From: Podarcis liolepis
Taxonomy: Eukaryota
NCBI GenBank assembly: GCA_965112155.1
Contig: OZ218100.1
Strand: one strand, 5' to 3'
Length of the DNA stretch: 64,000 nt
The translations under genes and the position numbers were made by a program. Every line of letters begins with the position of its first letter. Within the stretch, counting starts at the first letter, position 1. Below the pieces are notes generated by a model. That model did no database searches and was not told the origin of the DNA. It worked only from the letters and a program-made list of their open reading frames with translations. Shown in pieces: positions 1,011 to 63,075 of this stretch.

Positions 1011-1184
1011 GCTTTCATAGCTCATGAAAGCTGAAATGCAATATGAAAACATTGGAGTGCCTTTGGACTAAGTTTAATGTCTCCCCATCCTATATTTCTA
1101 TTTAAATGCCTGCTGTTGACCCCAGCGACTTTATTGGAAGAGATTTTGTTGTGCTAATTTTAAAGCTCCCATTTTCACTTCTCA

Positions 1185-1464
1185 NNNNNNNNNNNNNNNN
1201 NNNNNNNNNNNNNNNNNNNNNNNNNNNNNNNNNNNNNNNNNNNNNNNNNNNNNNNNNNNNNNNNNNNNNNNNNNNNNNNNNNNNNNNNNNNNNNNNNNNN
1301 NNNNNNNNNNNNNNNNNNNNNNNNNNNNNNNNNNNNNNNNNNNNNNNNNNNNNNNNNNNNNNNNNNNNNNNNNNNNNNNNNNNNNNNNNNNNNNNNNNNN
1401 NNNNNNNNNNNNNNNNNNNNNNNNNNNNNNNNNNNNNNNNNNNNNNNNNNNNNNNNNNNNNNNN
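1185..1464. other. Assembly gap (280 N)
   Basis: Run of N bases. Confidence 1.
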
Positions 1465-1544
1465 AGATAAATATTATACAAAGCCTGTCTGTCTTATAGC
1501 ATCACGTTATTGGGATTTATAATGGAATAGGGTGATTTTGAATA

Positions 1545-1648
1545 AAAATGGCTTCCCATACCAGCATCTAGATGGTCACTGTGAGAACAGGATGCTGGAA
1601 ATAGATGGACCATTGACCTGATCCATCAGTTCTTTTCTTCTGTTTTTG
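1545..1648 (+). mobile_element. CR1 LINE 3' UTR remnant
   Basis: CACTGTGAGAACAGGATGCTGGA..TAGATGG..CTGATCCA resembles the reptile CR1 3' end and is the reverse complement of part of 10342-10568. Confidence 0.6.
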
Positions 1649-2726
1649 AATCCAATCCAAGCTTTTAACCATACCACCCCCTCGTATAAATTTAGCAGTC
1701 AAGGAACATATATTACAATGAAGCATGAGCTACTGTGGCATCAGGAAGAAAGTTTTAAAACAGAATAAGAAAGGGACTAGTAAATACTTTTAGTCTTAAA
1801 GAACTCTCTCCATCTTATTGAAAGGAAGCTTGGGGGGCAATTTGTTTTATCAGTCTACATATGCATGAGCAATACCTCTGAAGAGTAAAGCCAGCCAGAC
1901 TTAATAAAAAGGACACACAGTCCTGCTTATGTACCTAATGAGGTTTTGAAACATCAAAAAGGGGGTCTTGTTTCACTAATTTGAGTATTTAAAGTGTGAT
2001 TGGCTGTTCTATCCAAAATATGAATTATTAATTAAACTTGCATTCAAAAGTAGAGCATTTTACTGACTCTACAGATTTGGTAGAGAGAAAATTCTGACCA
2101 TATGGACTATGAAAGCTTGCACAAAATGATCCCTCTGTGCTTTTAAACATGTAGTGTTTTGTGAACGATACCAAAAACAGCAAGCTAGTTAAGGTAAACA
2201 AAATAAAGGTCACACTGAAAAAGCAACAAAAATTTATCAGGCATGCTACTGCCACATGTTCTTGAAAACAAAACTAATTGAAGCCGCATTAGAAATAATA
2301 GTTGTTGATTATAAAATTATTGTAACAGTGAATATCTGTTTGTTAGATTATTATTACTATGATGATGAATTGCTTCCTATAAGGCATCTTGAAGTGATTT
2401 ACAATAAAATCATACATAAAATATTTATATATAAAAAGACAGTTGCAACATATTGCATATATTAAAAAACCCAATTACATATAAAACAATTACATACATC
2501 AATCAATTTCAGAACTGTTACAGATACCAACTAGGATAACAGCCACCACATAGAAGGTTTGCTGAAGGTCTAAGAGTCTCCAAAAGAGTCTCCAAAAGAT
2601 TGCGTTTGTCCGATACATAATGGGGGATAATTTGACAGAGTAGGTGTCTCCTGATATGATAGGGTGCTCTCCCCTGCAAAACATAGTGATTGGCTGGGTA
2701 TATAAGGGATGAGTTCATCTTTTAGC

Positions 2727-2880
2727 CAGGGCTTTTTTTCAGCTGGAACTCGGCGGAACTCAGTTCCGACACTTCTTAGGTGAATTCTAGCACCTCTCAG
2801 GTGGGCGCCATTGCCATTCTAAGAGTACAAGGGAGGTGTTGGTGAATTCTGGCACCTCTTTTTCTAGAAAAATAACACTG
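2727..2880. mobile_element. hAT-type MITE
   Basis: Ends CAGGGCTTTTTTTC and GAAAAATAACACTG; near-identical flanks CTTTTAGC (2719-2726) and CTTTTTAGC (2881-2889). Confidence 0.7.
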
Positions 2881-2953
2881 CTTTTTAGCTATCCTGATTC
2901 TAATAGGGCTTTGTGCAACAGCACCTTGAACTTAACCCCCATATGCACTATAA

Positions 2954-2984
<31 letters not shown>

Positions 2985-2998
2985 GTAGTAGTAGTAGT

Positions 2999-3253
2999 AG
3001 AGCCAGTGTGGTGTAGTGGTTAAGAGCGGCAGACTCGTAATCTGGGGAACCGGGTTTGCGTCTCCGCTCCTCCACCTGCAGCTGCTGGGTGACCTTGGGC
3101 CAGTCACACTTCTTTGAAGTCTCTCAGCCCCACTCACCTCACAGAGTGTTTGTTGTGGGGGAGGAAGGGAAAGGAGAATGTTAGCCGCTTTGAGACTCCT
3201 TAAAGGGAGTGAAAGGCGGGATATCAAATCCAAACTCCTCCTCCTCCTCCTCC
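2999..3253 (+). mobile_element. tRNA-derived SINE, Squam3-like (MIR/Ther1-related)
   Basis: A-box TGGTGTAGTGG, degenerate B-box, core CTGGGTGACCTTGGGCCAGTCAC and (CTC)n tail; nearly identical to the copies at 26879 and 37028. Confidence 0.85.
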
Positions 3254-3398
3254 TACTACTACTACTACTACTATTATTTGTGTACTGCCCTTCATCCAAA
3301 GATCCCAGAGTGGTTCACAACAGAAAAATATAAAAGCTGAGGCTGATGAGGAGACCAGAGACAGTAACAGATTTTGCAGGAGGTACTGGCTAGTTTTT

Positions 3399-3763
3399 GG
3401 AACGCGGGTGGCACTGTGGGTAAAACCTCAGTGGCTAGGACTTCCGATCGTATGGTCAGCGGTTCGAATCCCCACGGCGGGGTGAGCTCCCATCGTTTGG
3501 TCCCAGCTCCTGCCCACCTAGCAGTTCGAAAGCACCCCTAAGTGCAAGTAGATAAATAGGTACCGCTTTATAGCGGGAAGGTAACAGCATTTCCGTGTGC
3601 TGCGCTGGTGCTGGCTCGCCAGAGCAGCTTCGTCACACTGGCCACGTGACCCGGAAGTGTCTTCGGACAGCGCTGGCTCCCGGCATCTTAAGCGAGATGA
3701 GCACACAACCCCAGAGTCGGTCACGACTGGCCTGTATGGGCAGGGGTACCTTTACCTTTACCT
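3399..3763 (+). mobile_element. Sauria/Squam1 SINE, full length (variant X)
   Basis: GG(A/G)ACGCGGGTGGC start, B-box GGTTCGAATCC, (ACCTTT)n tail; 13-bp TSD TACTGGCTAGTTT at 3384-3396 and 3764-3776. Confidence 0.92.
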
Positions 3764-4445
3764 TACTGGCTAGTTTAAATTGGTGGTGTGTGAATCCATC
3801 CCTGGCCAGCATCAAATTTCTTTTAAAAATCCCATCCTCCCACACACAACAGAAAAATGCATTTTAGCTCCAGCTTTTTCTCCTGCGGGCTGCTTACAGA
3901 GGCATACATATCTGAAAACAAAACTCAACATGAGAGCATCCTGAGGAAGCATCATTCTAGCTATCTTGTTATCTGGTGAGCCCTATAAAAATCAATGCAA
4001 AGCTCCGGGAGGCAGTTTGGTGAGAAAAATCAACTCCAGAAAAACTCTTGTAATATTAATTATGCCTACATTGTCTTCAGGATTTTCAACAGTCCTCCTC
4101 CATGCAGAAATCTAGCTAGGAGTCTATGCAAGGAAAGGAAAGCTGCATTCTGTTTAATATGTGATTATTACACTACACTGACTGTACATGAAATGACAGT
4201 TCCAGTCAGCGCACTTAATATATGAGTACATGTGCTTATTTAATGCTTACTGTAGTATGCATTACATTTGATGGGAAAAGACTTTTTCAGGGTAAAGATA
4301 TGCCACAGTGAGTGTAGTGTGCAGACATTGTACTGATCCATTCTAGCTACCTTTCTCCACTCTGAAAGCAAGCACTATAGACAAGGATGCGTTGTGATTT
4401 CCACTGAATACTTGGGGCTTTGCCAGTGGTAATATTAACTCCCCC

Positions 4446-4448
<3 letters not shown>

Positions 4449-4486
<38 letters not shown>
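4449..4486. repeat. (CA)n microsatellite (others at about 35203-35231, 42554-42597, 58661-58688)
   Basis: Seen directly. Confidence 0.95.
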
Positions 4487-4488
<2 letters not shown>

Positions 4489-4957
4489 AGATGTACATAT
4501 ACATTCAGATTATTGTTCAAACAGTTCTAGGAGCAACAAACTCTAATTTTTGCAGAAACATGACAGTGAGTTTGCTCCCGCTAGTGCCTGCTTTCCCTAA
4601 GGGGAGTTCTGCACAGGATGCTCCCACTGGCAAAAATAAGGGGTGATGTTTGGACTGCAGGAAGCATTCACAAAAATGGCCTCCTCCCTGTTCAGTCAGA
4701 GATTTTCCTTGGTACCAAATAATGCACTTATTCATATATGAAAGAAAATGTTCCTTAGTACAGAAGGGTCCACCAACCAGCAGTCAGATGACTGGTCCTC
4801 CAATATTTCCATTGTGCACAACATATTAAGTATTCGCTTTTTATTTTGGGTGGCCAGAACAAAAGTTCACAGGCAGCCACAGTCAGTGGACAGAACAGGC
4901 TAAATTAGAACCTGACCCATTTGGGGAGATTTCAGTGACTGGATCAGAATAACTGGA

Positions 4958-5088
4958 TCAGCCTTTCTCAACCTTGATGTTGTTGGACTACAAGTCCCAT
5001 CATTCCTAGCCAGCATGGTCAGTGACCAGGGATCATGGGCATTGTAGTTCATGAATGTCTGGGTACCCAAGCTTGAGAAAAACTGTTC
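4958..5088. mobile_element. Degenerate non-autonomous hAT-like element (related copies near 25095-25210 and 43848-43980)
   Basis: Internally palindromic GGACTACAA.TCCCATCA ... TGGG..TTGTAGT.C block shared among the three sites. Confidence 0.55.
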
Positions 5089-5265
5089 TAAATGGCAGCT
5101 CATGATATTGTCATGCTCAGCAACACCCACAGCAGAGCACACTGTTAGTTGCTTTGCTTTTTTAATGACTCTTAGCTCCTCACCCTCCAAGGAAGGCAGC
5201 ACAATACCACTCACATGGAGAACATTTTTCTTTCTCGTTACTGTAACACTATCTTTCAAGCTATT

Positions 5266-5576
5266 GTAAACCACTAAGCCTTGGGCTTGTTGATCAGAAG
5301 GTCGGCGGTTCGAATTCTCGCGACGGGCTGAGCTCCCATGGCTTTGTCCCAGCTCCTGCCCACCTAGGGTACTGCTCCAGCGGGAAGGTAAACGGTGTTT
5401 CCGTGCACTGCTCTGGTTTCGCCAGAAGCGGCTTAGTCATGCTGACCACATGGCCTGGAAAAACTGTCTGCAGACAGACATTGGCTCCCTTGGCCAGTAA
5501 AGCGAGATGAGCTCCACAACCCCAGAGTCGTCTGCAACTGGACTTAACTGTCAGGGGTCCTTTACCTTTACCTTTT
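5266..5576 (+). mobile_element. Sauria/Squam1 SINE, 5'-truncated with internal deletion
   Basis: Aligns to the other copies; lacks the segment between CACCTAG and GGTAC; (ACCTTT)n tail. Confidence 0.85.
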
Positions 5577-5685
5577 ATATTTGACAGAGGAGGTAGAACA
5601 CAGCATGGGTGGCTGCTACCCATCAATAACACTGATGTTGGGATTGTGCAGAAGTGCTGGCAGGAGTGCCAGTTTGCCTCCTCTG

Positions 5686-5871
5686 CTGCTCCAACGGGAA
5701 GGTAAACGGTGTTTCCGTGCACTGCTCTGGTTCTCCAGAAGCAGCTTAGTCATGCTGGCCACATGACCCAGAAGCTGTACGCCTGCTCCCTCAGCCAATA
5801 AAGCGAGATGAGCACCGCAATCCCAGAGTCGTCTGTGACTGGACTTAACGGTCAGGGGTCCCTTTACCTTT
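5686..5871 (+). mobile_element. Sauria/Squam1 SINE 3' half
   Basis: CGGGAAGGTAAACGG...GGTCAGGGGTCCCTTTACCTTT matches the 3' half of 42071-42425. Confidence 0.85.
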
Positions 5872-7352
5872 TAACTCCTCCCCCCATCACAGTGTTTTCC
5901 ATTACATTCCTTGGCCCAGTTATGGGGCTGCCAAATGAGATGGTAACCGGTGTAGTTACTTTCTCTAGCCATGAAGACGACTACATTCTACAATATACCA
6001 CAATTTGCCAACTACTGAATCTGCAATGCTTTACTCATTAAAGCGACAGCATTTACATTAGGATTTGAGCAGTACCACGTACAAGTGACAAACATAATCT
6101 AGGTTCTCACAAGACAACATTTGCCCACACAATCAAATTGATTCACACTCAGTGGTTGGAGGTGCCTCAAGCAGACATCCTGAACTGTGGTGTTCATTAA
6201 CCTCCTGAAATGTCTATAACTGAACAGTACTTTTCAGAAGGCCAGTGCACACATTTCCAGCATGCTAGGACAACTCTGAATTTAAACTACGAAGATAAGT
6301 AATTGTGTTCTGTCCCTCTCCTTCACACAGTTTTCGTGGTTACTGTTTCTTTCCAGCAGCATCTGGGTGTGGGTGTAAATCTGATATTTTTCTGATGATT
6401 TTGAAACCCTTAAGCAATTTTTATTCTTTCCACCTGAGCTCTAGCAGTGGCTTGTCATTTTCAGAGAAGGGACACAAACAAGGAGACTAAGCATGAGCAA
6501 TAGTGGGTGCACACATCCACTGGTGACATGCTTGCAAAAAACCCCCACATCTGGAGCTGCAGACAGAAAACAGTAGTAGTAATTAATATCATCTTGACTC
6601 AAACTGACTTCCTCACAGAGATAAGAGAAGCAACACACAGCCTGTCTCCTTTCTGTTCCTTGCAGACATAGACCATGACTTCCTCTCCGTGCTTAGTCTG
6701 ATTGAGGATGCTGTTCCTTAACCCTATGTATAACAACATGCAGCATGCAGACAGCCTTATGGCCAAGCATCATCATCATCATCATCATCATCTTGTGAAA
6801 GTGCTGCTTTATTTATTCTATTTTCTTACATTTGTACCCTGCCTTTCTTTCCTTATGGAACCCTAGGCAGTGCACGTTGCCAAGCAATCTCAAAACAAGG
6901 AGAAATGCACTTCCCTTAATGAGAAATTAAAGCTGGATATTTGCTGTTTGATGATGAGCTATTTAAGACACATATACCTCTTCTGTTGCTGCCCCTCTTT
7001 CATGTTTCAACACCACGGCATTGGTAGGAGCATTTAAGAGAAACATTTACATCAGAGCTAGAAACTTGCTCTGTTTTCTTTTTACAAGAGAATTATCAGA
7101 TTCTATGTCACTTGTCCATTTTGTGGCTGTGTAAATTCCTAGTCACTCTTGCCCCAATCCAGAGAAAGTTAGTTATTAATAGGCTGTAACCTTCTGCTCG
7201 CTTACCTTGAAAAAAGCCCCATTGAGATCAATTTTGAATTTGTTCTCTTGGTTTCAATAACACCTAAGTGTGCTTTACTTTCACTGGGCTGGAGCCCAGT
7301 AGAGTGACGTAGAAAAGGCAGTGCCTTTTAAAACATGTATATCCCATTCTTA

Positions 7353-7715
7353 GGGATGCGGGTGGCGCTGTGGGTAAAACCTCAGTGCCTAGGACTTGCT
7401 GATCGCATGGTCGGCAGTTCGAATCCCCACGGCGGGGTGAGCTCCCATCGTTCGGTCCCAGCTCCTGCCCACCTAGCAGTTTGAAAGCACCCTTAAGTCA
7501 AAGTAGATAAATAGGTACCACTTTATAGCGGGAAGGTAAACAGTGTTTCCATGTGCGGCGCTGGTGCTAGCTCGCCAGCTGCAGCTTCGTCACGCTGGCC
7601 ACGTGACCCGGAAGTGTCTTTGGACGGCGCCGGCTCACGGCCTCTTGAGCGAGATGAGCACGCAACCCTAGAGTCGGTCTCGACTGGCCCGTGCGGGCAG
7701 GGGTACCTTTACCTT
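7353..7715 (+). mobile_element. Sauria/Squam1 SINE, full length (variant X)
   Basis: 13-bp TSD TATCCCATTCTTA at 7340-7352 and 7716-7728; Pol III boxes; ACCTTT tail. Confidence 0.92.
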
Positions 7716-8299
7716 TATCCCATTCTTAATGCTTCAAACATTGCAGCTTTTCAGATATATTGTCTCAATATATAACTAATTTATCCGGTCCTGAAAATGG
7801 ATGAAGAGTGTTCCATTTATCCCTTCTACCCCAGGAAATAATTAATAGAGTACAAGCTCATTTGTCCAAATAGAATGGCAGAGTCGAAAAGAAAAGAAAA
7901 AAGAAAAAAAACCCTGATAGATGGAAGCAATATTTTCTCAGAATCAAAATGAACGATTTTTGTTGAGACAGAATTCTTTTGGCTGTAAATTCTTAATGTA
8001 GGAAGCCATTAGAGATGAGGTAGAATGCTTAGAATCCAGTCTGAAACCAGGTTCTGATTGGGGTGGAAACAAAACAATTTTGGATTTGACAACCTATGCT
8101 GGAGTTTTGACAAAGTAGAATGCTTACATTCCTGGCTCTAAAATCCCCACTTCTCCAATTTTTGCATTGCTAGAAGCTAAACATACTTCATATAGGACAG
8201 TCATTTGTTCTTAAATATGTATTTAAAAATAGAATCCAATTTTTCTAGTAACTTTTCTAGTAACTTTTTTATTAGTTGCAAGAAGAAACTATTTCATAA

Positions 8300-17600: not shown

Positions 17601-18329
17601 CGTCAGTGGACACATGAAGCTCCATGGTACCAGATTCTCCCCCTTTTCTCTTTAATGTCAGGAAATTCTTATATCCTGAATGAATGGTTGAACTACAGAG
17701 GAGGATTCTTCCTTGAACAAGCAGTGTTGGCTCCTTATATACAGACATCCAGTTCTCTGAAGAACTTTGGATCATGACCATTCTATGCAAATTATTATGA
17801 TGGGACTCAGAAGTACCGGTACATAACTGTGCGAGAGCCTCATGGACATTAGCACAGATTTTTTTCCAGATGTCAGTTTAAGCTTAGTTGACAGGTCTTG
17901 TCTACTGATAGGAGATGAACGGAAGTTTAATATAAATGTGCTTTACATGAAAAAGGGCCAAGGATACCTGAAAGGTTCCATTCTGTATTTGGGACCTAAG
18001 CCTTTTGGAAGAGAACAGCTTTTTAATGTGTACTCTGTGTTTGGGCAGACAATGTAGTTCCTTTTTCCTCTGCTAAACATGTTGTGGTTTTTATGTACAA
18101 CATTTAATTTCTTTGGGCTGGATTCAACTGCCTCTCACTAGTTGGAGTATACACCAGGCTTTCACCCATCTCCTCCTGCATATACCCCACCCCCAAATTT
18201 TGTATGGAGAGTGTTGGGAGAACCCTCTAGAACAGTGGGGGGGGGGAGGAGAGGGATTGTTCCACCTGGCTAGCTGAATAATTGCTGCAGCACTATGTTC
18301 AATTCCACAACTAGGGTTTACTTAGAGTA

Positions 18330-18692
18330 AGGTAAAGGTACCCCTGCCCGTACGGGCCAGTTGTGACCGACTCTAGGGTTGCGCACTCATCTCGCTCAAG
18401 AGGCTGGGAGCCGGCGCCGTCCGAAGACACTTTCGGGTCACGTGGCCAGCGTGACGAAGCTGCAACTGGTGAGCCAGCACCAGTGCCGCACACGGAAACG
18501 CCGTTTACCTTCCCGCTATAAAGCAGTACCTATTTATCTACTTGCACTTAGGGGTGCTTTTGAACTGCTAGGTGGGCAGGAGCTGGGACCGAATGACGGG
18601 AGCTCACCCCGTCGCGGGGATTCGAACCGCCGACCTTACGATCAGCAAGTCCTAGGCACTGAGGGTTTTACCCACAGCGCCACCCGCGTCCC
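18330..18692 (-). mobile_element. Sauria/Squam1 SINE, full length (variant X)
   Basis: 12-bp TSD TTACTTAGAGTA at 18318-18329 and 18693-18704; most CpGs retained. Confidence 0.92.
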
Positions 18693-20337
18693 TTACTTAG
18701 AGTATATCCACATAAATAGGCCAAGGTGAAAGCTGAATCATGTTTACTAATTTATATAGGTCTACTCTAAGTGAAATTTAGTTGCATACTACCCCAATAC
18801 ATAATAAAACTTGCAACCTTATCCTACTTTATACTCAAAATTAAGTCCCGTCGCTATAAATGGAATTTAGGTTGAAATCCTAGACATGTTTACCGGGAAG
18901 ATATCCCAGTGAACTGAGGACAATTGCACTGTTACAATTGCACTGTTACAAATTTGATTGCTAAGACTGCAATCCTAAATTTTCTGAGTTCATTGCCTAA
19001 ATCTAAGCATACTTGAAGAATACCAAGCACGTCAAGAGAAGGGAAATAAAATGTAGAGTAGAAAGTGTATTGCTTGCCGCATTTGTTTTTTTTTTTTAAA
19101 AAATGATTAAGTGGTCCCCTTGAAATGACTATGATGTGCCACCCCTTCCTGAGTAATTGTCCAGAGAAAAAGGTGGCTGCCCACCTTTCACATCACAGTG
19201 TACTGCTGCTTCCAGGAATTTTTTAGTCAAAAGTGTCCAATGAGTGTGGCAGGAATCACACTTTCCAAATGCTACAAACAAGTAAACATGGTTTTAAAAG
19301 ATGGGGAAAATGGCCGGGAACACCTTCAGACCACCTCTCCTTTTTCTTTAAGTCAGCTTGGAACAAACAATGCTTAGAAGGGTTTTGTAGACATGCAATC
19401 TAATCCATATGTCTATGTTCCAAGCATAATTCATTGGATACAGATGAGGGAAGTTCACTCCAAGTTGTGAAGTGAACCAAAAACCTCCCCCACCTCCAGT
19501 GGATGAAGGGCAGAAGCTGAGAAAGACCAGCTTGTTCAGGGCAATCGAGCAAGTTTAGGCAGAGGTGAAATTCAAGCTGATAGCTTCTTGATTTTTAGCT
19601 TAGTCTCTTAGCTGCTTTGCTACACCAACTCTTAGTGTTCCAGGTACATGCAGTTTCTTTGCAATCCTCCTATATAATCAGCATTAACCTTTGAAATAAC
19701 CTATATGTTCCGGTTCTAACCCCGCCAAGAAAACTGTGTGCATGATATCCCTGTACCCCGGGGGAAAAAAATCTGGAAAGAGTATGGTGTACGATTGATT
19801 CCCACATCACAGTTTATATTTATGATACAGAATTGATCCAATCTGATTCTGTTCCATATTATGTAAGATAATGCACAAGCTGTTTCTCATCCCTTTCCAA
19901 TAGCATTTTTAACATACAATTAAGTTCTAAGACAAATTTAATTACCAGTGACAAGAGTCTAGTGAAATACTGTCAGACCTACGAAACAGGTCTGCTGTTA
20001 CACTGCCAAGGCCAATTAGGTAGAGGACCTTTTCTCCCCTTACAATGCCCAGGGGAGGAAATGAATATTTAACTCTGTTTGACAACTTGCAGCAACCACC
20101 AAGAACATTTAAACAGTTGTGGCTCTGATCCACACTTTCTTGGAAGTAAGTTATACTGAAACCCATGGAGTTTATGTACAATATAAATGTTCTTGGGTAG
20201 GGGATAATTTTTTTCAACTGAAGTTCCAGTCAAAACCCGGCAGTTTTAAGCCAGTTTAATTTCAACAGGAGAGTTAACCATGTGCTTAATGCGGTCCAGT
20301 GAAATCCATGGGACTTAAAAATGCTTACCTTTGGCTT

Positions 20338-26878: not shown

Positions 26879-27122
26879 GAGAGCCAGTGTGGTGTAGTGG
26901 TTAAGAGCGGTAGTCACGTAATCTGGGAAACCGGGTTCGTGTCTCCGCTCCTCCACATGCAGCTGCTGGGTGACCTTGGGCCAGTCACACTTCTGTGAAG
27001 TCTCTCAGCCCCACTCACCTCACAGAGTGTTTGTTGTGGGGGAGGAAGGGAAAGGAGAATGTTAGCCGCTTTGAGACTCCTGAAGGGGAGTGAAAGGCGG
27101 GATATCAAATCCAAACTCTTCT
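26879..27122 (+). mobile_element. Squam3-like SINE
   Basis: Near-identical to 2999-3253 and 37028-37291. Confidence 0.85.
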
Positions 27123-29711
27123 AGACTTGAACAGAAAATTGAAAAAGTATGGTGGATATCTATTGTGCTGGTTTTCAGTTCTTTCCTTCTAATTATATAT
27201 AAAAGTGCTATTATTTAAAATATATGACCTCATCAAAGCCAACAGGATGTGTGACATAAATGGGAATGCACCTATCAGTCTGATAGGTGTTTAGTAGCTC
27301 TCTCCTTGACTTCACTGGTACAGTTAAGTAATTTTGGACTCTGGAGTTTGAACTTAATAGTCTTGTGTGGGTGTCATTTTCAGATGTTGACATGTTTTAC
27401 TTCAGTTACCTCAAAAAAGTGATTCTGCTGTCCGGGGGCCAGAACACAAAATTGGGGGCCATGAGCAAAATTGGGCAGCCTAAAGTTGCATTTTATGCAA
27501 ATTGCTTCTTAATTATGCAAATTTTGTTGGAGTTGGGGAAATGGTTAAGCAAATTTCCCATCCCAAACAGAACCTCCCAAAGTTGCTTAATAAGCAACAC
27601 AACTACTGTAGGTTTAGGGGTTTGTTTGTTTTTTCAGGGAAGTGTGAGGGGGCTGAGAAGTTGATTGCAGTGGGAGTAATTAACACTTTCTTTCAGCCTG
27701 TTTGTGCAATTAAGACTTATGAGTTGTCCCCTGCTCTTTCCACCTCACTAGCAATTCATTTCTCCCTCTGTTTCCTCTTCCATAGTGCTGCTGGAATTGA
27801 CTTCACAATGCATGAAAGAAGATTAAAGTTGGAAAGATCATTCAAGACTCCTTTCTTTATTTGTAGCTCCCTCCCTGCCCTGGTTACACTGAAATCCTAG
27901 ATTTCTCCACTATTCTCTCTCATCAGCTAATTTCTTCTACAAAGAAGACAAAAACTGGTTTCAAAAAGAATCAGAACGTCTTTTGGGTAAGCAATGAGTG
28001 TGTCAGTATACGACACACAGTGCTACTTCTCTAAATGTTAGTCATTGGCTAAGAACAATAAAGAGTCGGGGAAGTCTTTTTTCTCACAAAATAACTGGCA
28101 TAATTCAGGCAATTATGGTACCCTTAGAATAGTTTCCATAAAATTGTCTGTGTGCCAGCAGATGGGCTCAGAAATTAACTCTGTATTCCTGCAGTGATAG
28201 TTTAGAGTTTCGGGCCCAAGCCTTATCTTCATAAATAGTTGCTCTAGTTCTAAACTGCAGAAGGTGCTCTCCCACCCTCCCTCCTAAAATGTGGTTTGCA
28301 CAACATTGTGGATAAACTGCAGTCACCTTTGATTCATTATGACATGATTTGGAAACATTTGCCATTACATACTTTAACTTGACTTGGGCCCTGTGTGAGC
28401 CAGAAACTTGACTTTCAAAGATGAGTGTTGGGGCTCTGGGGGGCTGAACATAATCCTGCGTAGGCAACAGGAATTAGCCTTTGAGGGAAGCCTGAATGGG
28501 GCTCACTCAAACATTAACTAATATCCAATATGGTATGCTAAAGACTTTCCCTTATTTTTATTTCATGAAAGACAGAAAGCTCCAGCACTGCATTCTCATT
28601 GTGCTTTATTTCTTGGCCCAGCTATAATTTAAAAACAATATGGGGATAGTTTTCTGTTTTCCAAATTTTAAATACCCTTCTCTCTTATTTATTAGAGGAA
28701 ATGTGGTCCTATAATGGATGCAGCAGCAGCAGCTCTACTTAACTGCAGTTGGTGCAGATGTAGTGTAGCATCACACAGGATGGGTATTATGACTTACACA
28801 TTTCTGACAGGTCCTGAAGCCTGTTGCCATGGTGCCAGCTTGGATTCTAGGGCAGAACTAAACAGCCGACTGTAACTCTTTTCATTTCCAGCTGTCACTG
28901 TGCCACAGCCTGTTTTGTCATAGCATCAAGGATTTTTTTTAAACCAAACTCCATAAACATGGACTGCATCAACTTCACAAACACACATGTTTTCCTGCAG
29001 TTCTTCTATAATTTCAGCACTTCCAAAATGAGACGCACCATAAAATCAATGAATACTTTCTTCCATCCCTCTCTAGTCAACACAGTATTTGCCCCTAAAG
29101 CACTCAATGCAACTTGATAGGACAAAACTATGTATCAGTCTGTACATGTTCAGCTATTATAGGCCTTTCCCACTGTGTATTAAAACATGCCTAAGTCAGC
29201 TGCTACTGGGACGTAACAATAAGTGGGAGGAGGGGACACAGTGTACATTGTATAACTGTGGAGAAATCCATACCATCCATGTTCCAGAGCTTCTGTGGGC
29301 AATGACAGTGCAGTGACACAGGCAAACATAGGGCTACTTCTGAACCCTGTGACTGCACAGGTTGTAGCTATTCCATGAGAAGTGGGGGGGGGGCAGACAT
29401 ACAAGCAAACCAGACAACCTATCCTCTCCTTGTTAGTTTCACTGGTCACCACAGAGTGGATATCATTTCCCTCCCATCCTACTACCTCCATTAAACAGCA
29501 CTGTAACCTTTGGGAATTTATAATCTTTCCAACCTGCTCCCTATATTGGTTAGAATGGTGTCACACTCAGGAATGGTGAGAATAACATCTCTCTATCCAA
29601 ATTTTCTAAAGGGAATGATGCTTTTGCCTACAGTTTTAGTAAGGAACAAGCTTGTGGGACAATGGTTTTAGGGAAGAAAACTACTTCCCCCATGAGAGAA
29701 AATAAAAATAA

Positions 29712-31503
29712 CGCTGGTCCACAACAAATTTGTTGCCTGCATTTTTTCAGTTGATTTAGGATGAATCTGATGCGCTGAATCCAAAAATCACATTGGTTTT
29801 GCTCAATCAGGTCAAGTTTTTGAGCTATGGCCACATGTTGTTTTTTTATGTTTTTGTTCACATGTACGCTTGTGTGGAGCATTTTAGAAGAAGTTGGTGT
29901 GGGTAAAATGCCATGTCAAATAATTGTTTTGATTGGAAATGATTATTTTAATGACAAGTTAATGGGGCAGCCGCCCCACGAAGTATCCTGATCTTCAATC
30001 AGCACGTTGTCCTGTAGCTCATTATGATGAAATTCCAGTGCCTATCTTTGGAGAACTTCCTGACATTAGTGACGAAGATGCCTTCAGTGTTGAAGGACAT
30101 GAAGAAGAAGTGGTTCTTGAAGATGATGCTCCACATCCATTTTCCCAAAAGGAATTGAATGATCTAGTTCATGACCTCAGCTTGTCAAAGGACTCTGCCG
30201 AACTGTTGGCATTCAGATTGAAGGGAAAAAAACCTCCTCTCTGACAGTGCTCGCATCAGCTTCCTCCGCAACAGGCATCAAGAGTACCTCCGTTTTTTCT
30301 CGGAAGAGAAGGACTTGGTGTACTGTGCAGATATTGCGCAGCTTCTGCTCAAGCTTGGAGTGCCACAGTACGAATCCAAAGATTGGAGACTGTTCATTGA
30401 CAGCAGCAAGCGATCACTGAAATGTGTTCTGCTACACAACGGCAACCAGTTTGCCTCTATACCCCTGGCTCACTCGAGTACACTGAAGGAGAACTATGAA
30501 GCGGTGAAGTATGTGCTGGAGAAAATTGGTTATGATCAGCATAAGTGGTTTATTTGTGTTGACCTGAAGATCGTGAACTTTTTGTTGGGACAACAGTCTG
30601 GCTTCACCAAGTACCCATGTTTTCTGTGCATGTGGGATAGTAGGGACCGTGCTCAGCATTACACGAAGAAGGACTGGCCTGTGCGGGAGGAACTGGTGCC
30701 TTGCAAAAAAAGGAACGTCATCAACAACCCTCTGGTGGACAGAGACAGAATATTCTTCCCACCGCTGCACATCAAGCTTGGCTTAATCAAGCAGTTCACC
30801 AAGGCTCTGGACAAGGATGGTGACTGCTTCACTTACTTGTGCCAGGCTTTTCCAGGATTGACCATGGAGAAGTTGAAAGCTGGCATCTTTGACGGTCCTC
30901 AGATCTGTCAGCTCATCAGAGATCCAGAGTTCGGAAACTCAATGAACGAAGTGGAACTGGAAGCGTGGAAGGCATTTGTTCTGGTAGTGAAGAACTTTCT
31001 TGGCAACAATAAGGCCAGAAACTATGCAAAACTTGTCAACAACATGCTGACTGCTTTCAGAAACTTGGCCTGCAACATGAGCGTCAAGATGCGCTACCTA
31101 TTTTCACATATGGACTGGTTTCCTGAGAACCTGGGTTCAATGAGTGACGAGCAGGGGGAGAGATTCCATCAGGACATGAAAGAGATGGAGACTAGGTATC
31201 AGGGTCGCTGGGACGCAGTCATGATGGCTGACTACTGTTGGACTCTGAAGAGAGACCTCCCTGCCACTGATCATTCCAGGAGTTCCAAGAAATGAAGGTT
31301 CAAGCCCTGAAGTTTGAAAAATGGTGAAGCAACATGCAATTTACGTGTACTTACCTTTATCAATGCCCACCATTCAGTTTACAGAAAACCTGACCTGATG
31401 GAGAGAAACGGATACCATTTCCTGATTCAGCAGTGCAAAAATACCCTAAATCAGTTGTAGAAATCTAGACAACATTCAAAAAGTAAAAAATTGTTGCCCA
31501 GTG
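29712..31503 (+). mobile_element. Chapaev3-type (CMC superfamily) DNA transposon, internally deleted, both ends present
   Basis: TAA flanks both sides (29709-29711 and 31504-31506). Left end is CGCTGGTCCACAAC and right end is GTTGCCCAGTG (reverse complement CACTGGGCAAC). About 110 bp of imperfect terminal inverted similarity with shared blocks TGTTG(C/T)CT, TGATTTAGG, GCTGAATC and ATCAGGTCA. Contains a transposase frame. CAC...GTG termini with a 3-bp TWA TSD are the established Chapaev3 signature. Confidence 0.9.
29981..31295 (+). pseudogene. Chapaev3-like DDE transposase, N-terminally truncated, one frameshift
   Basis: From 29981 reads KYPDLQSARCPVAH...FSQKELNDLVHDLSLSKDSAELLAFRLK. A +1 frameshift in the G/A run near 30222-30232 is followed by an open frame (LLSDSARISF...DLVYC...) through the 326-aa ORF 30315-31295. 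Motifs: WRLFIDSS, ICVDLK, YPCFLC, PPLHIKLG, GIFDGPQI, SDEQGERFHQD, MMADYCW. Confidence 0.9.
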
Positions 31504-34500
31504 TAATCCAGCTATATCTATTCAAGATTGCTTCTCTAACCTAGCCAGTACTTGTCCATTTATGTCATAAAGCAGCTGGGTTTCTTTGAAACCTTCTCCT
31601 GGTCCATTTCTGCTGTGGTGCCCAACTGTGATCTCTGACACTTTCCAATGTTCCACCTTACTTGAAATCTGCCAGATCTTGCTCTCTTGCAACTTTTCAG
31701 TTCTCAATCATCAGTGAAACTTCTCACGGATGGCAATGAAGACCTTGTTCTTCAGTTTGGCTGATATTTTCCCTCCCCCTCTGACCTTTTCACCAGTTAG
31801 GAGTGTGGAGTCCTTCTATTTCTCCTAAATTACTAGGTTCCTAGGCTGAATTCATTTATTTATTTAGCCCATTTATTAGGGTTCACATATTTCAAACAGT
31901 GAAAATCAGCTTTTAAAAGGCAAAGTTGTTGAGCAATTCCCCCCCCCCCCATTTTTGACCTATTTTTATGGGAAATTGAAAAAAAGTCACTGCTGACATG
32001 GGCTGCAATATGTCTGATTTTCCTAGACATTTGACCAATTTCTGCCTGGACAATGCTGCCCACTGCAGTATCCTGGATTTGTTCAGGAAATTCCAGCTAT
32101 ATGGCAAGCCTACATTTATAAACCACTTAAGATCCACAAATCTCAAAGCAGTTAGAATAAATAAAAATCCAAATACAAAATTCAACAGTATTGTTTCAAA
32201 TAAATTAATTTACATGAAGAAAAATCCAAATACATAAATGCACACTATCTATTTCCATAATAATATCTATTTAAGAAGCAATATAAAAGAGTCAAATAAA
32301 TCTCTACAACCAATTAAGAACAGCTGGAGTTAAACTGCCAAATGAGCATAAGTTCAACAAAATACAATAAAAATGAGTGATTATTTTTTTAAGTATGTGA
32401 AGTCCACTTAAAAGAGACAAGCAAAGGGATTATTCTACATATTTGGAGGGCAAGGAAATTTCACTTCAAAATTAAAGATAACAGTATGGCAGAATAAGGT
32501 GGTACAAGGGCATACCTTTAGCACACTTTCTCCATGTTTTGGCCTGAAATCTTGAGTACTTCAATATTATCATATATACAAAGAGTGATCCCAATGTTTT
32601 GAGTGCCTGTTCTTATGTAATCCAAGCAAGATAAGTGCATTTGCATCACAATATCATAGAATGGGTTGAAGGAAAGCTGACTCACTTGCTTGTAGGGATG
32701 TGGGAGAAACTCAGTGAGGTTCACAGAAGTGCTATCATTTGCACTTCCGGAAACAAGAGACAAACTGAAATGCAGTTATCCTTTGAAATTCACACAACTC
32801 CAGATGCTCTTCAGCCAAAAATGTGTACAAATATACATATTTTGTTTGAGATGCACAGCGAATGAAAGTTGGGCTGTTATGTTATCAAAAGAAAGACTTC
32901 CCAGTCTCTTGGTACATATTTATTAGATTAGAGCTGAATCTGCACTAAATATTTATGCTTCAGATGGTGTTCCATTCATCAATAAGAATTGAAAATAATT
33001 TCAGTTCATCATATATTATAGCACAGCTTTTTATATAATTGGAGGTTTCTGCAAATTTGATGGAGTGCCATATGACTGGGAATGAGGGAGGGAGCGATAT
33101 TATAAGTACATTCACAAAAATCTGTAATAACAAACTCAGTCTCCAAGAGTGTATTCTTATGTAGCCAAAACAGCACCACAAAGGAGAAGTATAAACATGG
33201 TCTGGAGAACAGCAAGGTTTACATAATACAGAAAAGGAGTAAGGGAACCTAAGGGGGCAACCCCCTTAAAACAGCAACAACCCAACACTGAGCACAAATT
33301 TAAAACAGACTATCAAAAACCATTTAGAACAGGCTCTGTCACAAGTTTCACTTGTATGACTTAATAAAAAGAATGCCACTGAGCAGGTGCAAAGTGCATA
33401 TCTTTCACTTGGAGTAGCTACAGCTAGTTTGCAGATGTCTGAGGTTGAGGATATGATGACTGACTACTGAGTCTTTTTTTGGTCACTGCCACTCCAACTC
33501 TTCTGTCTACCTGCTGATGTGTTAAAATTAGCTGTAGTCAGAGCAGTCCCAAAGGCAGAGGCTGAGAAAGAGGTGGGGGAAAGTTCAGGGACAAGCAAGT
33601 CACAGCAAGTTAGCTCATTTCAGAAAGTGGTGCTCAACTGGCCACTCACACTATTATGGAAAAGAGAGCTTCTGTCTTTGAAAGATATGTCGGTGTGATG
33701 TTGTTGTTGTTTAGCTTCCTAACTATTTGGAAAGACCACCAGAGAGTGGAAATCTCAGGGTCCCTGAATCCCAGTTCCTTAATTTTCACATGGAGGCTAC
33801 AACCAACATTGACAAAATACTTTCTGGCATTGAGCAATGAATTGTGCTGACAGGTTATATAAATCTCCTTTTTGTATTCACTAAAGTCTAAGGCTAATGG
33901 CTTTTTTGAGCTTTGTTACTCTCCTTTGGGGGGGTGGGGTGTTTAAGCCAAAAAGGAGAGAGATGGTTATAAATACTTGGCTCCAGCATCTGCATTACAT
34001 CTGTTCAACAGGGAAAGAGTGAAGAATGTTTTAAAGCAACAAGCATGCAGTTAAAGGTAACATGCCAGTATTGCCTCATAGCTTATGTTGTGACAGGACA
34101 TAACAGCAATTCAATCCAAATTGTTCGACAAAATAAAGGGGTAAAAATGGATACCTGTGGTCAGCTTAGGCCAGATACATGCCTAAATCTAGTACTCATA
34201 CTAGAATATGACATCTATCAATGTGATCCTTTGTCAGATCATAGGAAGTAAGTGGAACCATTGCAGGGGGTGGGGTGGGGACACAACACTCAAGTTTATA
34301 AAATATAGTTGGCTGTTTTAGTTCTAGAACTAAAACAGTAAGATGGAAAGCAGTCCTCTCATGAAGCTCAAGAAATCCAATCAAATTGACCTTCAAACTG
34401 TAATCCTAAAACATTGTTTTGAAGCCAAAAGCAAACTGAAAATATATGGGATTTGCCAAGAATCCTATATGGTTTGACTTAGGACAAGAATGTAAACAAA

Positions 34501-37027: not shown

Positions 37028-37291
37028 GAGAGCCAGTGTGGTGTAGTGGTTAAGAGCGGTAGTCATGTAATCTGGGAAACCGGGTTCGTGTCTCCGCTCC
37101 TCCACATGCAGCTGCTGGGTGACCTTGGGCCAGTCACACTTCTGTGAAGTCTCTCAGCCCCACTCACCTCACAGAGTGTTTGTTGTGGGGGAGGAAGGGA
37201 AAGGAGAATGTTAGCCGCTTTGAGACTTCTTAAAGGGAGTGAAAGGCAGGATATCAAATCCAAACTCTTCTTCTTCTTCTTCTTCTTCTAC
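37028..37291 (+). mobile_element. Squam3-like SINE with (TTC)n tail
   Basis: Same body as the other two copies; (TTC)n at about 37266-37289. Confidence 0.85.
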
Positions 37292-42070: not shown

Positions 42071-42425
42071 GGGACGCGGGTGGCGCTGTGGGTTAAACCA
42101 CAGAGCCTAGGACTTGTCGATCAGAAGGTCGGCGGTTCGAATCCCTGTGACGGGGTGAGCTCCCATTGCTCGGTCCCTGCTCCTGCCAACCTAGCAGTTT
42201 GAAAGCATGTCAAAGTGCAAGTAGATAAATCGGTACCACTCCAGCGGGAAGGTAAACGGCGTTTCCGTGCACTGCTCTGGTTCGCCAAAAGCGGCTTAGT
42301 CATGCTGGCCACATGACACGGAAGCTGTATGCCGGCTCCCTCGGCCAATAAAGCAAGATGAGCGCCGCAACCCCAGAGTCGGCCACGACTGGACCTAATG
42401 GTCAGGGGTCCCTTTACCTTTTTTT
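42071..42425 (+). mobile_element. Sauria/Squam1 SINE, full length (variant Y)
   Basis: GGGACGCGGGTGGCGCTGTGGGTTAAACCACAGAGCC...GGTCCCTTTACCTTT. Confidence 0.92.
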
Positions 42426-50685: not shown

Positions 50686-53598
50686 GCTCTCCCTTCCCCT
50701 TTTATCCTCACAACAGCTCTGTGAAGAAGGATAGATGGGATAAGGTATCTGGTCCCAGGGGTGGATCTTGGTAATATGCCACCCTATTTGAGGCCTTCCC
50801 ACAGCCTTTACACCATTGGCTTAAGTAGGGCTTTGGGAAAGAGGTACAAGGCTCTGGCAGAGTCCTAGAGACTTCCTATCTCCTTCTCAAAGCTTGGTAA
50901 GTGCTTGCCTGGCTTTGTAAAGGAGGCAGGAAGACTCTAGGATCCTGCCAGAGCTCTTACACCTCCTTCCTGAAGCTGGGCATGTGCTTACCAGGCTTTG
51001 AGAAGGCATCCTCTTTCTCAAGCAGCGACTGCACCACTTGCACTGCCTAAATCCACCTTTGCTGGCCCAAGGTCACCCAGTGAGTTTGCATTTTCCTGTT
51101 GCATCAGTTGCTTTGATTCATGTTCTAATTCTAAAGCTAATTTTAAATCTTGATGCGAGTCTCCTCTGGACCGTTGATCTGCTTCATTTACATAGGGCTG
51201 CCTCACCCTATGTGCATCAATCGCCAGAAACAGAATTCAGGAATTCAGATTTTCAATGACTGTGCATGGGAAGATGTTGGCTACTGCACACCATCAACAT
51301 AATTTGTGTCATCATGCATTCAGGTGAACAACTGAGTAGGGCTACAGCAAAAGCTTGTTTTGCGATAGCTTAATGATTGTGAGAGCATATCTTGTGTCCT
51401 TAAATATGTGTGTGGTCAGGTTTGGCAGAGTTTGGGGGCATTACATTACTGCAGATGACTGCCATGATATAGGAATGATCTAGTTGCCAATGCAACAAGT
51501 CTTAGTCCTGGTCAATTCCCAAGTTCAAAAATCCGTTGTAAACTTTTGGAATTAGTAGACTGCAGAAATGTTCGTTAAAGTGTGTCATTTGCTCACTTGT
51601 CCTCATTTGCCCTCTCTTCCTCTGAATTGCAGGGTTTTCTACTGAGACGTTTGCAAAGAAGTGCTTTCTTGATTAAGAGAACTTATCGTATAAGCCACAA
51701 TCCAAAGGGAATTTTCATCCCTGAGTTAAAACCCCTGTAAATGCTGTTTTAGAATGGAAAGACAGCTCTAATCTATAGAGTCACAAACTCAGAGCCATAT
51801 AATACTCCTATCATCACCTTGCAAATCATGTCACGTAAATATGTCAAGATACTTGTCATGTTGTGAATGGTTGCAAGAATCAAATGGAACAAAATTTACA
51901 TAAATACCAAGAGACTTGATTCTGGAAGCCAAGCATACACTCTGAGGCCAAAGAATTTATGGTGCTGAATTTAATAACATAATGGGGTTTCTGGATGCAT
52001 AATTTGGCCCAGTTTACCTTTGTGGAGCCATTTGCCAAAGTTCTGGAAATCTCCCAGGTCATTTGTGTAAATTACGTTGCCTTGTACATCTGTTTGGTCT
52101 CTTGATCTGTATTTAAACTGTTCTGGAAATCTGGGATGAAAGTTGTTCCGATCAAAAACATATTCTCTGTTATGTTAATTTATGGCCTAAAAAAACCCAC
52201 ACCGAAAACCAGAAACATGATGAGGCAGAACTTCCTTGATATAAGATGTGCATTTTCAGTAGTATTGTATTACAACTTGCAGTTCTGAAGGCCAACAGTT
52301 TCTGCTGAAGGCCAAGAGTAGTTAATGGCCAATGCAATAACCCTGCCTAGGTTTCTGGTTTCCGTGTGATTAGAACTGTGTATGGAGAGGAGGGGAACCA
52401 GACTCTCTGTTACTTTCCACATATTGGGTTAGAAGTCTGACGTGGGGAGCTTGATGTTCATTCGTAGGCATTATTTGAACCCAGATTGCACAGAGTTCTT
52501 AATCTCATGAGGTGCCTACACATGTAGAGAACTCAGACCTTCCTCACCATTTCAGGTCTTCTCTCCCAAGACATAAATGGCTGGGGCCAGGGAGAGAGAG
52601 CAGAGGTTGTGATTGTGGATGCAAGGACAGTGTGTATAGCCTCACTGCCCCCACTCCCGGCACACAGCCCTAATTCAATGAGGCATAAAGCCTGAAAAAG
52701 GCTAATGATGCAAGGGAAACTCAGTTCAGCTTGGCATTCCTGATAAGCAGGTATGATAGTAATAACACAAGCAACTCCCTGTTTGTGTGAGGGTTGCATT
52801 TCGTGTCATTGCGTGTGTCCATGGAACATGCGTAAGCCCACCCCACCCCCTTCTTGGGTAAGAAAGGGCACATGTGCCAGTGGTCATGTGCCAATTGAAT
52901 GCACACAAAATGGTGGATGCCTGTAAAAAACACTAATAAATATCTTCCTAAATGAGTAATCATAGAACTACAACTGGAACTACATTGTTTTCAAAATTCT
53001 CCTCAGAATTCTCTTTTGCAGATGCGAGGCCACTTCTGAATATTCATGTATTCTCCAAATATCTGGCATCTGTATTTCATACCCAATGAAAAGGAGTTTC
53101 AGTGTATGGTATCCAACAATTAATATTTTGAGGTATCTGACAACTGGCAATAGAATTCAAGACAGGCAGTGGCTCTGTACAGATGTCACACTATACGAGC
53201 ATTCACGGTTTGTGGATGTATACAGGTGGCTATATGAATTCTCCTGCAACAGATCAAGCATGAACAAATTTGCTCCAAGCTTGTGAGACTTGCCTCTGTG
53301 GTAGGGGTGGGTGGGATCTCATTCAGCTGCCCAGCAGCCAAAGATGGGCTGTGTTGCATCACCTATTTAAGAGTGGTACTGTAGCTATTACGTCTTCACT
53401 TCTTACTTAAAAAACAACAACCTAATAACATTACTATAAAATCATAATATTTGCCTGCAAATCTTTCACTGGTCAGCACACCCAGTGAGAAGCCACACAC
53501 AGTATGAACTTGCAACACCCCTCTTACACTCACTCCATGATCCCATCCCATGCATACAATCATAAATCATGAAGGAAAAGTTCCTGTTTCTAATATAA

Positions 53599-53880
53599 GG
53601 GCTCATCCACACTTACACTGGTTCTGTGATTTCTAGACATGGGTCCGAGAGGATTTTCTTTTGTCTCGTCACTTTCCCTGGGAAAACCTGCTTTTTACTC
53701 CTGAACTGGAAAAACATTAAACAGGTTTTCTGCAGTTTGATGTTTGCTCTGAATCAGTCGTAAACAGTGGGTTTTCCCAGGACAAAATAAAAGTGACAGG
53801 ACAAAATAAAAATTTCTTGTGGACCCATGCCTAGAAATTATGGGACAAACAGAACAAAATATGTAAGTGTGGATGAACCC
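53599..53880. mobile_element. Fold-back MITE, PIF/Harbinger-like
   Basis: TIRs GGGCTCATCCACACTTAC and GTAAGTGTGGATGAACCC; inverted similarity continues about 110 bp inward (ATTTCTAG.CATGGGTCC, CCTGGGAAAACC). Confidence 0.75.
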
Positions 53881-55519
53881 TTGAATAAAAACAGTGTCGT
53901 CGTTACCATTCATTTATTATTATTTATTGCATTTATATATCACCATTATTCCTATGGGGGCATTTGACAGTACTGGATTGATGCCATGCAATAGTTTTCT
54001 AATTTTGTTCCTAATTTCTTCATTCAAAAATCAGAATGGGAAAGTTTTGCACATTTTGAGAAAATTCCTTTCAGATCTAAATCTGTCATTTTCTTATAAT
54101 GGCTAGGATGAATACAGTCCGTAAAAGCATGTGTGGAATGACTGGCTGCTTGTGAATTGGGCTTGGGAGCTGTGTGTCCATCTTCCTGCTCAGGCATGAA
54201 GCTCACTGGGTAGTTGCTTTGTCTCCTAGCCCTACCCCAACAACACAGGTTTGCTGTTAAGAAAAATGCAGTCGTCCACAAATACATTTCCACAAGCTTC
54301 AAGCTTCAAGGATTTAGGGAAGGATGCCATTATTAGGAAGGAATGAAACAGCTTTTGTAGAAATGTTGCCTTTGGGACTATACCTTGAATATGAATCCCA
54401 ACATATACATTAGGGGTTTCCTACTAACTGTGGCCCAATTAGAGCTGTAAAATAAAACTGCCTTTTTTGTGTCTTTCAAATGTACTTTGATTGTTTCGGA
54501 CCACATTAGAGAGTTTTCAACAACAAAAAAATTAAACCTGAGTGGCATGTTTTAAAGCACTTGGTTAAATGATATGCTGAACTGCTCTGAAAGACTCAAT
54601 TGGTTGGAATGAGGTGGTGCTGTTAAACCTAGCTGCCTCCCTTTGAGATTGTTGGAGTGAAGTCCTTTCCTTGCGATTTCTTTTTATTAATACGTTGGGT
54701 TCTTAGAACTTGGAAGTCTACGTATTTATTTTCATTATTATTCTAAGGTAAAAAAGTCATGCATGGGGTGTGGGTGCGTAGTATCGGTTTTCTTAACAGC
54801 CAAACAATCTGAAGGCAAGTTGCGTATGAAAGGGAAAATCCTCTTTTTCAGCAAGACTCTGAAATATGACACCTTGATCCCCTCAGGAACATAGGAAGAC
54901 AGCATTTTTATTTTTTTTAAACAGCCTTCAGATTCATGTTAAATTCAGATGTTTCCATGCTAGAGACAGCTTTACGGCAGATCAGATTCTACCACTGGCC
55001 TGCTGCCTTTTATTAGTTTAAGCTGTCTCTGGCTGCCCAGAATGGAAAAGTCTCCCTGCCGCCAGTGGTTAGGAGTTATTATTAACAGGACAGCCAAAGA
55101 GGACTCACATGCCTGAGCAATTTTATTCAAAGATCTTGTTTAAAAATGTGAAGGGCTTTAAAGGCCACTCTCAAACACAGCTGTCATTCATTTAAGTGCC
55201 ACATTCACAGAAAATTGGGCTTATTTCTCGCTGCTTGGTGGGGAACACCATGCAGACAGGTAGGGCCAACTGAAAAGTTAGACTGAGTGAGGAAACCACC
55301 TCAGGTGGCAAGTGCTCAGGGACTGGGAGTGGTGACAAGGTGTTGGAGGACAGAACTGTGTATGCCCCAAAGCCTGCCCTGTGCTTCAAATCCTCTGCTT
55401 TCGAGTGTGATGCAGATTTATGTTCCATCAGTTGAAGTAAGATTCAACTGCCAGTCCATCTAGCTTTTATACATGAAATGACCTCCTTTGGGGGAGATGA
55501 TTGAAAGTTGTAGTGGAGT

Positions 55520-62720: not shown

Positions 62721-63075
62721 GGGACGCGGGTGGTGCTGTGGGTTAAACCACAGAGCCTAGGACTTGCTGATCAGAAGGTCGGTGGTTCGAATCCCCGCGA
62801 CGGGGTGAGCTCCCGTTGCTCGGTTCCTGCTCCTACCAACCTAGCAGTTCAAAAGCACATCAAAGTGCAAGTAGATAAATAGGTACCACTCCAGTGGGAA
62901 GGTAAACGGCGTTTCTGTGTGTTGCTCTGGTTCGTCAGAAGCGGCTTAGTCATGCTGGCCACATGACCCAAAAGCTGTACGCCGGCTCCCTCAGCCAATA
63001 AAGCGAGATGAGTGCCACAACCCCAGAGTCGGCCATGACTGGACCTAATGGTCAGGGGTCCCTTTACCTTTACCG
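62721..63075 (+). mobile_element. Sauria/Squam1 SINE, full length (variant Y)
   Basis: 13-bp TSD TTAGAAAGCAGGA at 62708-62720 and 63076-63088. Confidence 0.92.

Follow-up and report, generated by a model that had tools for sequence, protein, structure and literature searches.

One-Turn Asymmetry of Transposon Ends in Most Sampled Chapaev3 Families: Evidence From a Copy in Podarcis liolepis and Its Relatives

Introduction

In V(D)J recombination, RAG1-RAG2 pairs one short and one long end that differ by about one helical turn, and the origin of this 12/23 rule is debated. According to a 2021 review, the asymmetry is known among transposons only from some Transib families (PMC8355894). A Chapaev3-type element in a 64,000-nucleotide stretch of DNA from Podarcis liolepis (hereafter the window; assembly GCA_965112155.1, contig OZ218100.1) raises the question of whether this list is complete: the same sequence blocks recur at its two ends, ten base pairs (bp) farther from one tip than from the other. 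Is this spacing an accident of one copy or a rule of the family, and what could maintain it?

As described below, a rule placing the first block 19 bp from one tip and 29 bp from the other is real, conserved in most sampled Chapaev3 families and apparently undescribed for Chapaev3. We consider it likely, with a probability of about 0.6, that the rule is due to an asymmetric transposase complex that pairs one short with one long end.

The Two Ends of the Element

The element occupies positions 29712-31503 (1792 bp) and is flanked on both sides by TAA (29709-29711 and 31504-31506, plus strand), with an A before the left copy and a T after the right one. This A-TAA...TAA-T context fits the 3-bp TWA duplication between A and T with which Chapaev3 was defined (PMC4079192). 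The empty site is represented by an X15 contig that links 29708 to 31504, omitting 1795 bases, that is, 1792 plus 3. The right tip is GTG, or CAC when read inward. The left tip starts with CGC in the window copy; 19 of the 20 X24 reads covering this base have CAC, as do contigs of three further runs, so that with majority letters the termini are CAC...GTG.

Each end is made up of an 11-bp tip, an AT-rich spacer of 8 or 18 bp and an interior array of about 90 bp. On the left (plus strand), these are 29712-29722, 29723-29730 and 29731-29825, an array of 90-95 bp. On the right (minus strand), they are 31493-31503, 31475-31492 and 31380-31474. The initial annotation had located four shared blocks at distances of 19, 40, 62, and 94 bp inward of 29712, the left tip, and of 29, 50, 72, and 104 bp inward of 31503, the right tip. 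The blocks do lie there, starting at 29731, 29752, 29774, and 29806 and, read inward, at 31474, 31453, 31431, and 31399. The constant offset of +10 also holds, with 62 of 95 positions matching in an ungapped comparison, against 17-33 at the other 35 offsets between -15 and +20 and a maximum of 45 in 5000 shuffles of the right end. The blocks are alike at 33 of 34 bases. The stretches between them had been described as divergent, and they do diverge (24 of 50 bases alike), although their similarity is still above chance.

The entire 10-bp difference is located in the spacer between tip and block 1 (8 vs. 18 bp). In most copies, block 1 reads TGTTGTCT at both ends (T at 29736); its first base is defined by conservation and may be off by one or two. 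The distance of 19 corresponds to 7 + 12, as in the 12-spaced recombination signal sequence (RSS), and that of 29 to 7 + 22, one short of the 23-RSS. Two further features were seen at the tips. With the majority letter at 29736, positions 29721-29736 form a 16-bp palindrome that extends from the short-end spacer into block 1, and bases of the tip are repeated in inverted form in block 1, at a distance of 7 or 17 bp. By eye, these features are not general across families.

Could the offset be an indel private to this copy? In a copy survey, four runs from four organisms, out of 24 listed, were aligned to the element at 80% likeness. Among the differences carried by at least 20% of reads, which are those that the survey lists (1086 loose ends are not displayed), no indel falls in 29712-29815 or 31399-31503, except for one base of a T run at 31485 in one of the four runs. 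The offset is not private. In run X24, many read ends are loose at 29958, 30020, and 31384-31387 (64-189 reads each), which indicates that longer or chimeric forms of the window family exist in that organism.

The Spacing Rule Across Families

Relatives at 31-87% identity were taken from metagenome contigs (the best 80 of 405 confirmed stretches, giving 79 loci) and from genome contigs (2 loci). An 88-base profile seeded on the window's two interiors alone matched 112 of 164 locus sides, and a separate tip profile was allowed to land anywhere 5-70 bases outward of the interior match. Among the 102 tips called, a number that includes near-identical loci, 42 were at 19 bp, 33 at 29 bp and 27 at 15-31 bp; none was near 39 bp. 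At the level of families, defined as 41 clusters at 80% nucleotide identity, the modal distance was 19 in 23 and 29 in 21 of 55 family-ends. Where both ends of a locus were called (n = 35), they differed by exactly 10 bp in 22 cases, by 6-12 in 11 and by 0 in two. One of these two zero differences (L007) was discarded, its contig being palindromic. One short and one long end were found in 20 of the 21 families with both ends called, although related families are not independent draws. Thirteen elements retain both ends and a frame of at least 500 codons: 11 are 19/29, one is 19/28 and one 26/26. Locus L016, read by eye, is 29/19.

Published sequences point in the same direction. In the 3' ends of Conan and Merrow, the first block stands 19 bp from the tip (by eye, PMC4079192, Fig. 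S6), and in the 5' ends of Merrow_TO and Merrow_LF it stands at 29 and 28 (by eye, PMC4079192). The one-turn offset is supported across the sampled families, where random variation among families is not seen, as is the phase-preserving spacing suggested by the initial annotation.

Either side of the element may carry the short end: in 14 families it precedes the gene (5'), in six it follows it (3'). At least three side changes are required on well-supported branches of a 31-row tree. These swaps may be explained by recombination between the inverted interior arrays, which would flip the gene between fixed tips. Inversion of this kind requires no selection, a point in favor of a view without any pairing rule: either length would work as long as it is in phase, the ancestor had one of each, and selection purges only out-of-phase lengths. 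We judge this view unlikely, even if it is the strongest of the alternatives, for reasons found in the ends themselves and in the exceptions to the rule.

Anatomy and Co-Evolution of the Ends

The spacers are 83-86% AT, and the long one consists of an A tract followed by a T tract. About 100 bp farther in than block 1, the similarity of the two ends is down to background level, and conservation across families extends beyond the four blocks that were first noticed. In 24 short and 22 long ends, no column distinguishes short from long interiors, and conservation has a period peak at 10.75 bp (p = 0.0085). For AA/TT steps, the power at 10-11 bp was reached in 0 of 2000 permutations, yet the spectrum of these steps is highest at 18 bp; support for a 21-bp repeat is weak (z = 3.1, the best of 47 lags). 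The consensus after the spacer is TgnTGnct, followed by the array, and not an A-rich nonamer. A GCTGA motif is kept in relatives from many unrelated samples.

In the 16 families with an exact pair of ends, the two ends of one element resemble each other more than they resemble those of other elements: 89% within vs. 63% between elements for tip bases 4-11, 82 vs. 45% for block 1 and 65 vs. 51% for the rest of the interior. Sequences on both sides of the spacer therefore co-evolve while the 10-bp gap persists. This is difficult to reconcile with mere phase tolerance of inherited lengths: if end-to-end conversion or co-selection homogenises tip and block 1 within families on either side of the spacer, the spacer itself should often have been equalised.

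The periodicity of AA/TT steps and the A-then-T composition of the long spacer would also suit a model in which host factors, namely nucleosome positioning or HMG-box or AT-hook benders, read array and spacer, leaving only the tip to the transposase; the extra turn with its A and T tracts would then supply a bend required at one end. HMGB1 helps RAG on the long signal, and the title of the top fold match of the transposase names an HMGB1 linker. Nevertheless, block 1 and the interior vary from family to family and change together at the two ends of a family, which is what recognition by each family's own transposase would produce, and GCTGA persists in relatives of many unrelated samples. Such a role of host factors appears improbable to us.

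The Transposase and Its Relatives

An open frame of 357 aa at 30222-31295 (plus strand) encodes the catalytic core, in which D, D, E, C(2)C, and LH are present. It is 96% identical to P0001 and has 3236 relatives among 4186 candidates, on none of which a Pfam family of the transposase kind was found. In intact relatives of about 560 aa, an acidic linker connects a Cys-rich N-terminal domain with a DDE core whose C(2)C, LH, and H(4)H motifs are invariant or nearly so (alignments A1 and A2); by eye, the printed Garfield_BM protein carries the same core motifs. The assignment to Chapaev3 made by the initial annotation is in agreement with PMC4079192 on CAC ends, TWA duplication between A and T, and core motifs. 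The ends, the duplication, the motifs and, in intact relatives, a transposase length of about 560 aa are shared with the published Chapaev3 elements Conan, Merrow, and Garfield (Zhang et al., 2014, PMC4079192) and with those of the anole (PMC3014272).

The window copy itself is degenerate. Upstream of the frame, 29981-30229 (plus strand) corresponds to residues 127-210 of the intact relative P0002, and the reading frame is broken near 30229. The first ~126 residues of P0002, putatively the zinc domain named Chapa (PMC4411706), had no counterpart in a tblastn search. This Cys-rich domain of about 135 aa is present in relatives 84-87% identical. In addition, Arg replaces the first His of H(4)H. 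With the first ~126 residues missing, the frame broken and Arg at a conserved His, the copy is non-autonomous and would have been mobilised by an intact relative. P0001 (424 aa, 46 members) is also devoid of the N-terminal domain, which suggests an amplified deletion subfamily.

Chapaev3 has been put in the Transib superfamily (PMC4411706) or in a wider CMCT clade (PMC12730594). Matches of the predicted structure indicate a RAG1-type fold for the catalytic core, the fold also expected of Transib and RAGL, and thereby lend support to the RAG1/Transib kinship on which the initial annotation had drawn. The top fold alignments begin at RAG1 residues 458-459, and one at 441, after the nonamer-binding domain (GRPR/K). 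For the N-terminal domain, the best fold matches are ZAD domains, with weak scores. This likeness raises the question of whether insect ZAD domains, the RAG1 non-core domain and the putative Chapa module are of common origin.

Symmetric Exceptions

Several observations weigh against a strict pairing of unlike ends. In locus L025, the repeats are 163 bp long, the spacing is 26/26, the frame spans 634 codons, and TTA flanks the element on either side. L050, a two-exon relative that was overlooked by the end profile, carries repeats of about 665 bp and, by eye, two ends of the long type; it too is flanked by TTA on either side. In the lamprey Merrow consensuses, the other end is at 19 and 20, so that these are possibly symmetric (by eye, PMC4079192). 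Because symmetric elements exist, the spacing rule is strong but not absolute.

The matching duplications of L025 and L050, the possible symmetry of Merrow and the existence of symmetric as well as asymmetric families in Transib are what one would expect if either length simply worked in phase. However, symmetry occurs in just two of the 23 families with both ends seen (21 from calls, with L016 and L050 added from reading by eye), no family of the 23 is short/short, and the 102 tips include none near 39 bp. Moreover, both symmetric elements have a decayed N-terminal domain. They are not sisters (approximately unbiased test, p-AU 0.0002), and of the 50 loci in which both domains are covered, these two rank lowest in the ratio of N-terminal to core score (0.46 and 0.53; the next is 0.67), with residuals of -3.2 and -3.3 SD. 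This pattern is post hoc and concerns two elements only, and the clade of L050 is thin in the profile. L070 and L080 also lack the same short motif, yet are asymmetric.

The rarity of symmetric Chapaev3 elements could also mean that symmetric ends work, perhaps even better, and are selected against through sister-chromatid pairing or host overload. Hyperactivity has been obtained with symmetrised piggyBac ends and a redesigned transposase (PMC11707139), as a brake or fidelity device of this kind would have it. Wild-type piggyBat, on the other hand, requires both ends (PMC11707139), and the exact 10-bp difference in 22 of 34 two-ended loci (L007 removed) is not explained by a brake alone. We regard this as the least probable of the explanations.

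The L050 element with its terminal repeats of about 665 bp, at positions 1172-5737, has inserted among frames that resemble a Helitron Rep/helicase.

A Possible Mechanism and Its Relation to Known Systems

How could an asymmetric transposase complex favor one short and one long end? In the predicted structure, a disordered acidic linker joins a ZAD-like zinc domain to the RAG1-like core that follows. The catalytic cores would grip the CAC tips, and the N-terminal domains could dimerise, as ZAD domains do. Directly or via further array-bound transposase dimers, this N-terminal dimer would set both arrays on one helix face. If the module tilts on its linker, in a manner comparable to the RAG1 nonamer-binding dimer, one extra turn at one end would fit and two equal ends would fit poorly. 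In V(D)J recombination, too, the core is preceded by a flexibly linked module of the dimer type. No RAG2 gene was seen in these ~2-kb Chapaev3 elements, nor, in contrast with V(D)J signals, a nonamer. A 12/23-type pairing requirement may hold in Chapaev3, to judge from comparative support with two symmetric exceptions.

One-turn asymmetry has been published for several Transib families, among them Transib5 and Transib2_AG with RSS12- and RSS23-like ends that also share the CAC tip (PMC1131882). In PflRAGL-A, the second element is displaced by 10 bp between ends (bioRxiv 2023.08.20.553239), and in AanRAGL the figures are 4/13 (PMC9435367); the window element shows a similar difference of about one turn, and the predicted catalytic fold of Chapaev3 is related. 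The differences are no less clear. The duplication is of 3 bp in Chapaev3 vs. 5 bp in Transib/RAGL, a phased array of about 90 bp whose first block is not nonamer-like takes the place of a 9-bp A-rich nonamer, and a ZAD-like domain stands in front of a structural match that starts past the RAG1 nonamer-binding domain. Unlike in Transib/RAGL, either end of a Chapaev3 element may be the short one. Asymmetry is also the norm in Chapaev3 (20/21), whereas the first Transib survey found it in "several families" (PMC1131882). The element is 12/23-like in geometry and, with its 3-bp duplication and lack of a nonamer, not a member of Transib/RAGL.

In piggyBac and piggyBat too, the same internal motif lies at unequal distances from the tips (PMC11707139; bioRxiv 2026.07.15.738711); several transposase dimers bind along the ends, and symmetric piggyBat donors are inactive. 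These elements differ from Chapaev3 by their TTAA target and transposase family, and no piggyBac chain is among the listed fold matches of the Chapaev3 transposase. The available text of both sources describes no conserved one-turn difference across families. As for Chapaev3 itself, terminal repeats of 11-19 bp were given for the anole (PMC3014272), and the available text of Zhang et al. (2014; PMC4079192) yielded no mention of asymmetric or subterminal ends. In the Chapaev3 literature, Repbase Reports and database entries being outside the scope, we found neither a report of end asymmetry nor a description of the ~90-bp array and the 19/29 rule.

In 20 of 21 families, a branch separate from Transib/RAG, with a RAG1-like predicted fold, keeps a one-turn offset at nearly the same distances (19 and 29 bp), although its DNA elements and its N-terminal module are other ones. 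The asymmetry is either older than Transib/RAG or repeatedly favored by the fold; both possibilities can be tested. It is conceivable, though we would sooner doubt it, that the asymmetry was already present in an ancestor common to Chapaev3 and Transib/RAG1, that a dimeric ZAD-like domain pivoting on its linker enforces it in Chapaev3, and that it relaxes when this domain decays. The near-symmetric ends of RAGL-B, whose nonamer-binding domain is degenerate, suggest the same relaxation among RAG's own relatives. If so, Chapaev3 would be a single-protein, widely distributed 12/22 system. A direct test is at hand, with intact natural transposases accompanied by their own ends (the 11 exact 19/29 elements) and with L025 and L050 as natural symmetric controls. 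For annotation and vectors, Chapaev3 ends are best defined as about 110-120 bp, not 11-19 bp.

Other Observations

Some features of the relatives and of the window deserve mention. In L001 (2319-2689), a second, inverted copy of the 3' end is present (91% over 190 bp), so that two long-type interiors stand back to back. Two contigs filed as bacterial genomes, L080 with a complete Chapaev3 element of 2.2 kb and L081 with a repeat-rich stretch and microsatellites, are likely eukaryotic contamination. In the window, the imperfect palindromes at 53584-53894 and 50882-51006 do not match the Chapaev3 end profile and are probably miniature inverted-repeat transposable elements of other families. Two families resembling short interspersed elements (SINEs), both with short direct flanks, were also seen: one of about 244 bp at 2993-3240, 26879-27122, and 37028-37271, and one of about 365 bp at 3396-3760, 7352-7717, 18329-18693, 42071-42421, and 62720-63071, which presumably corresponds to the squamate Sauria SINE.
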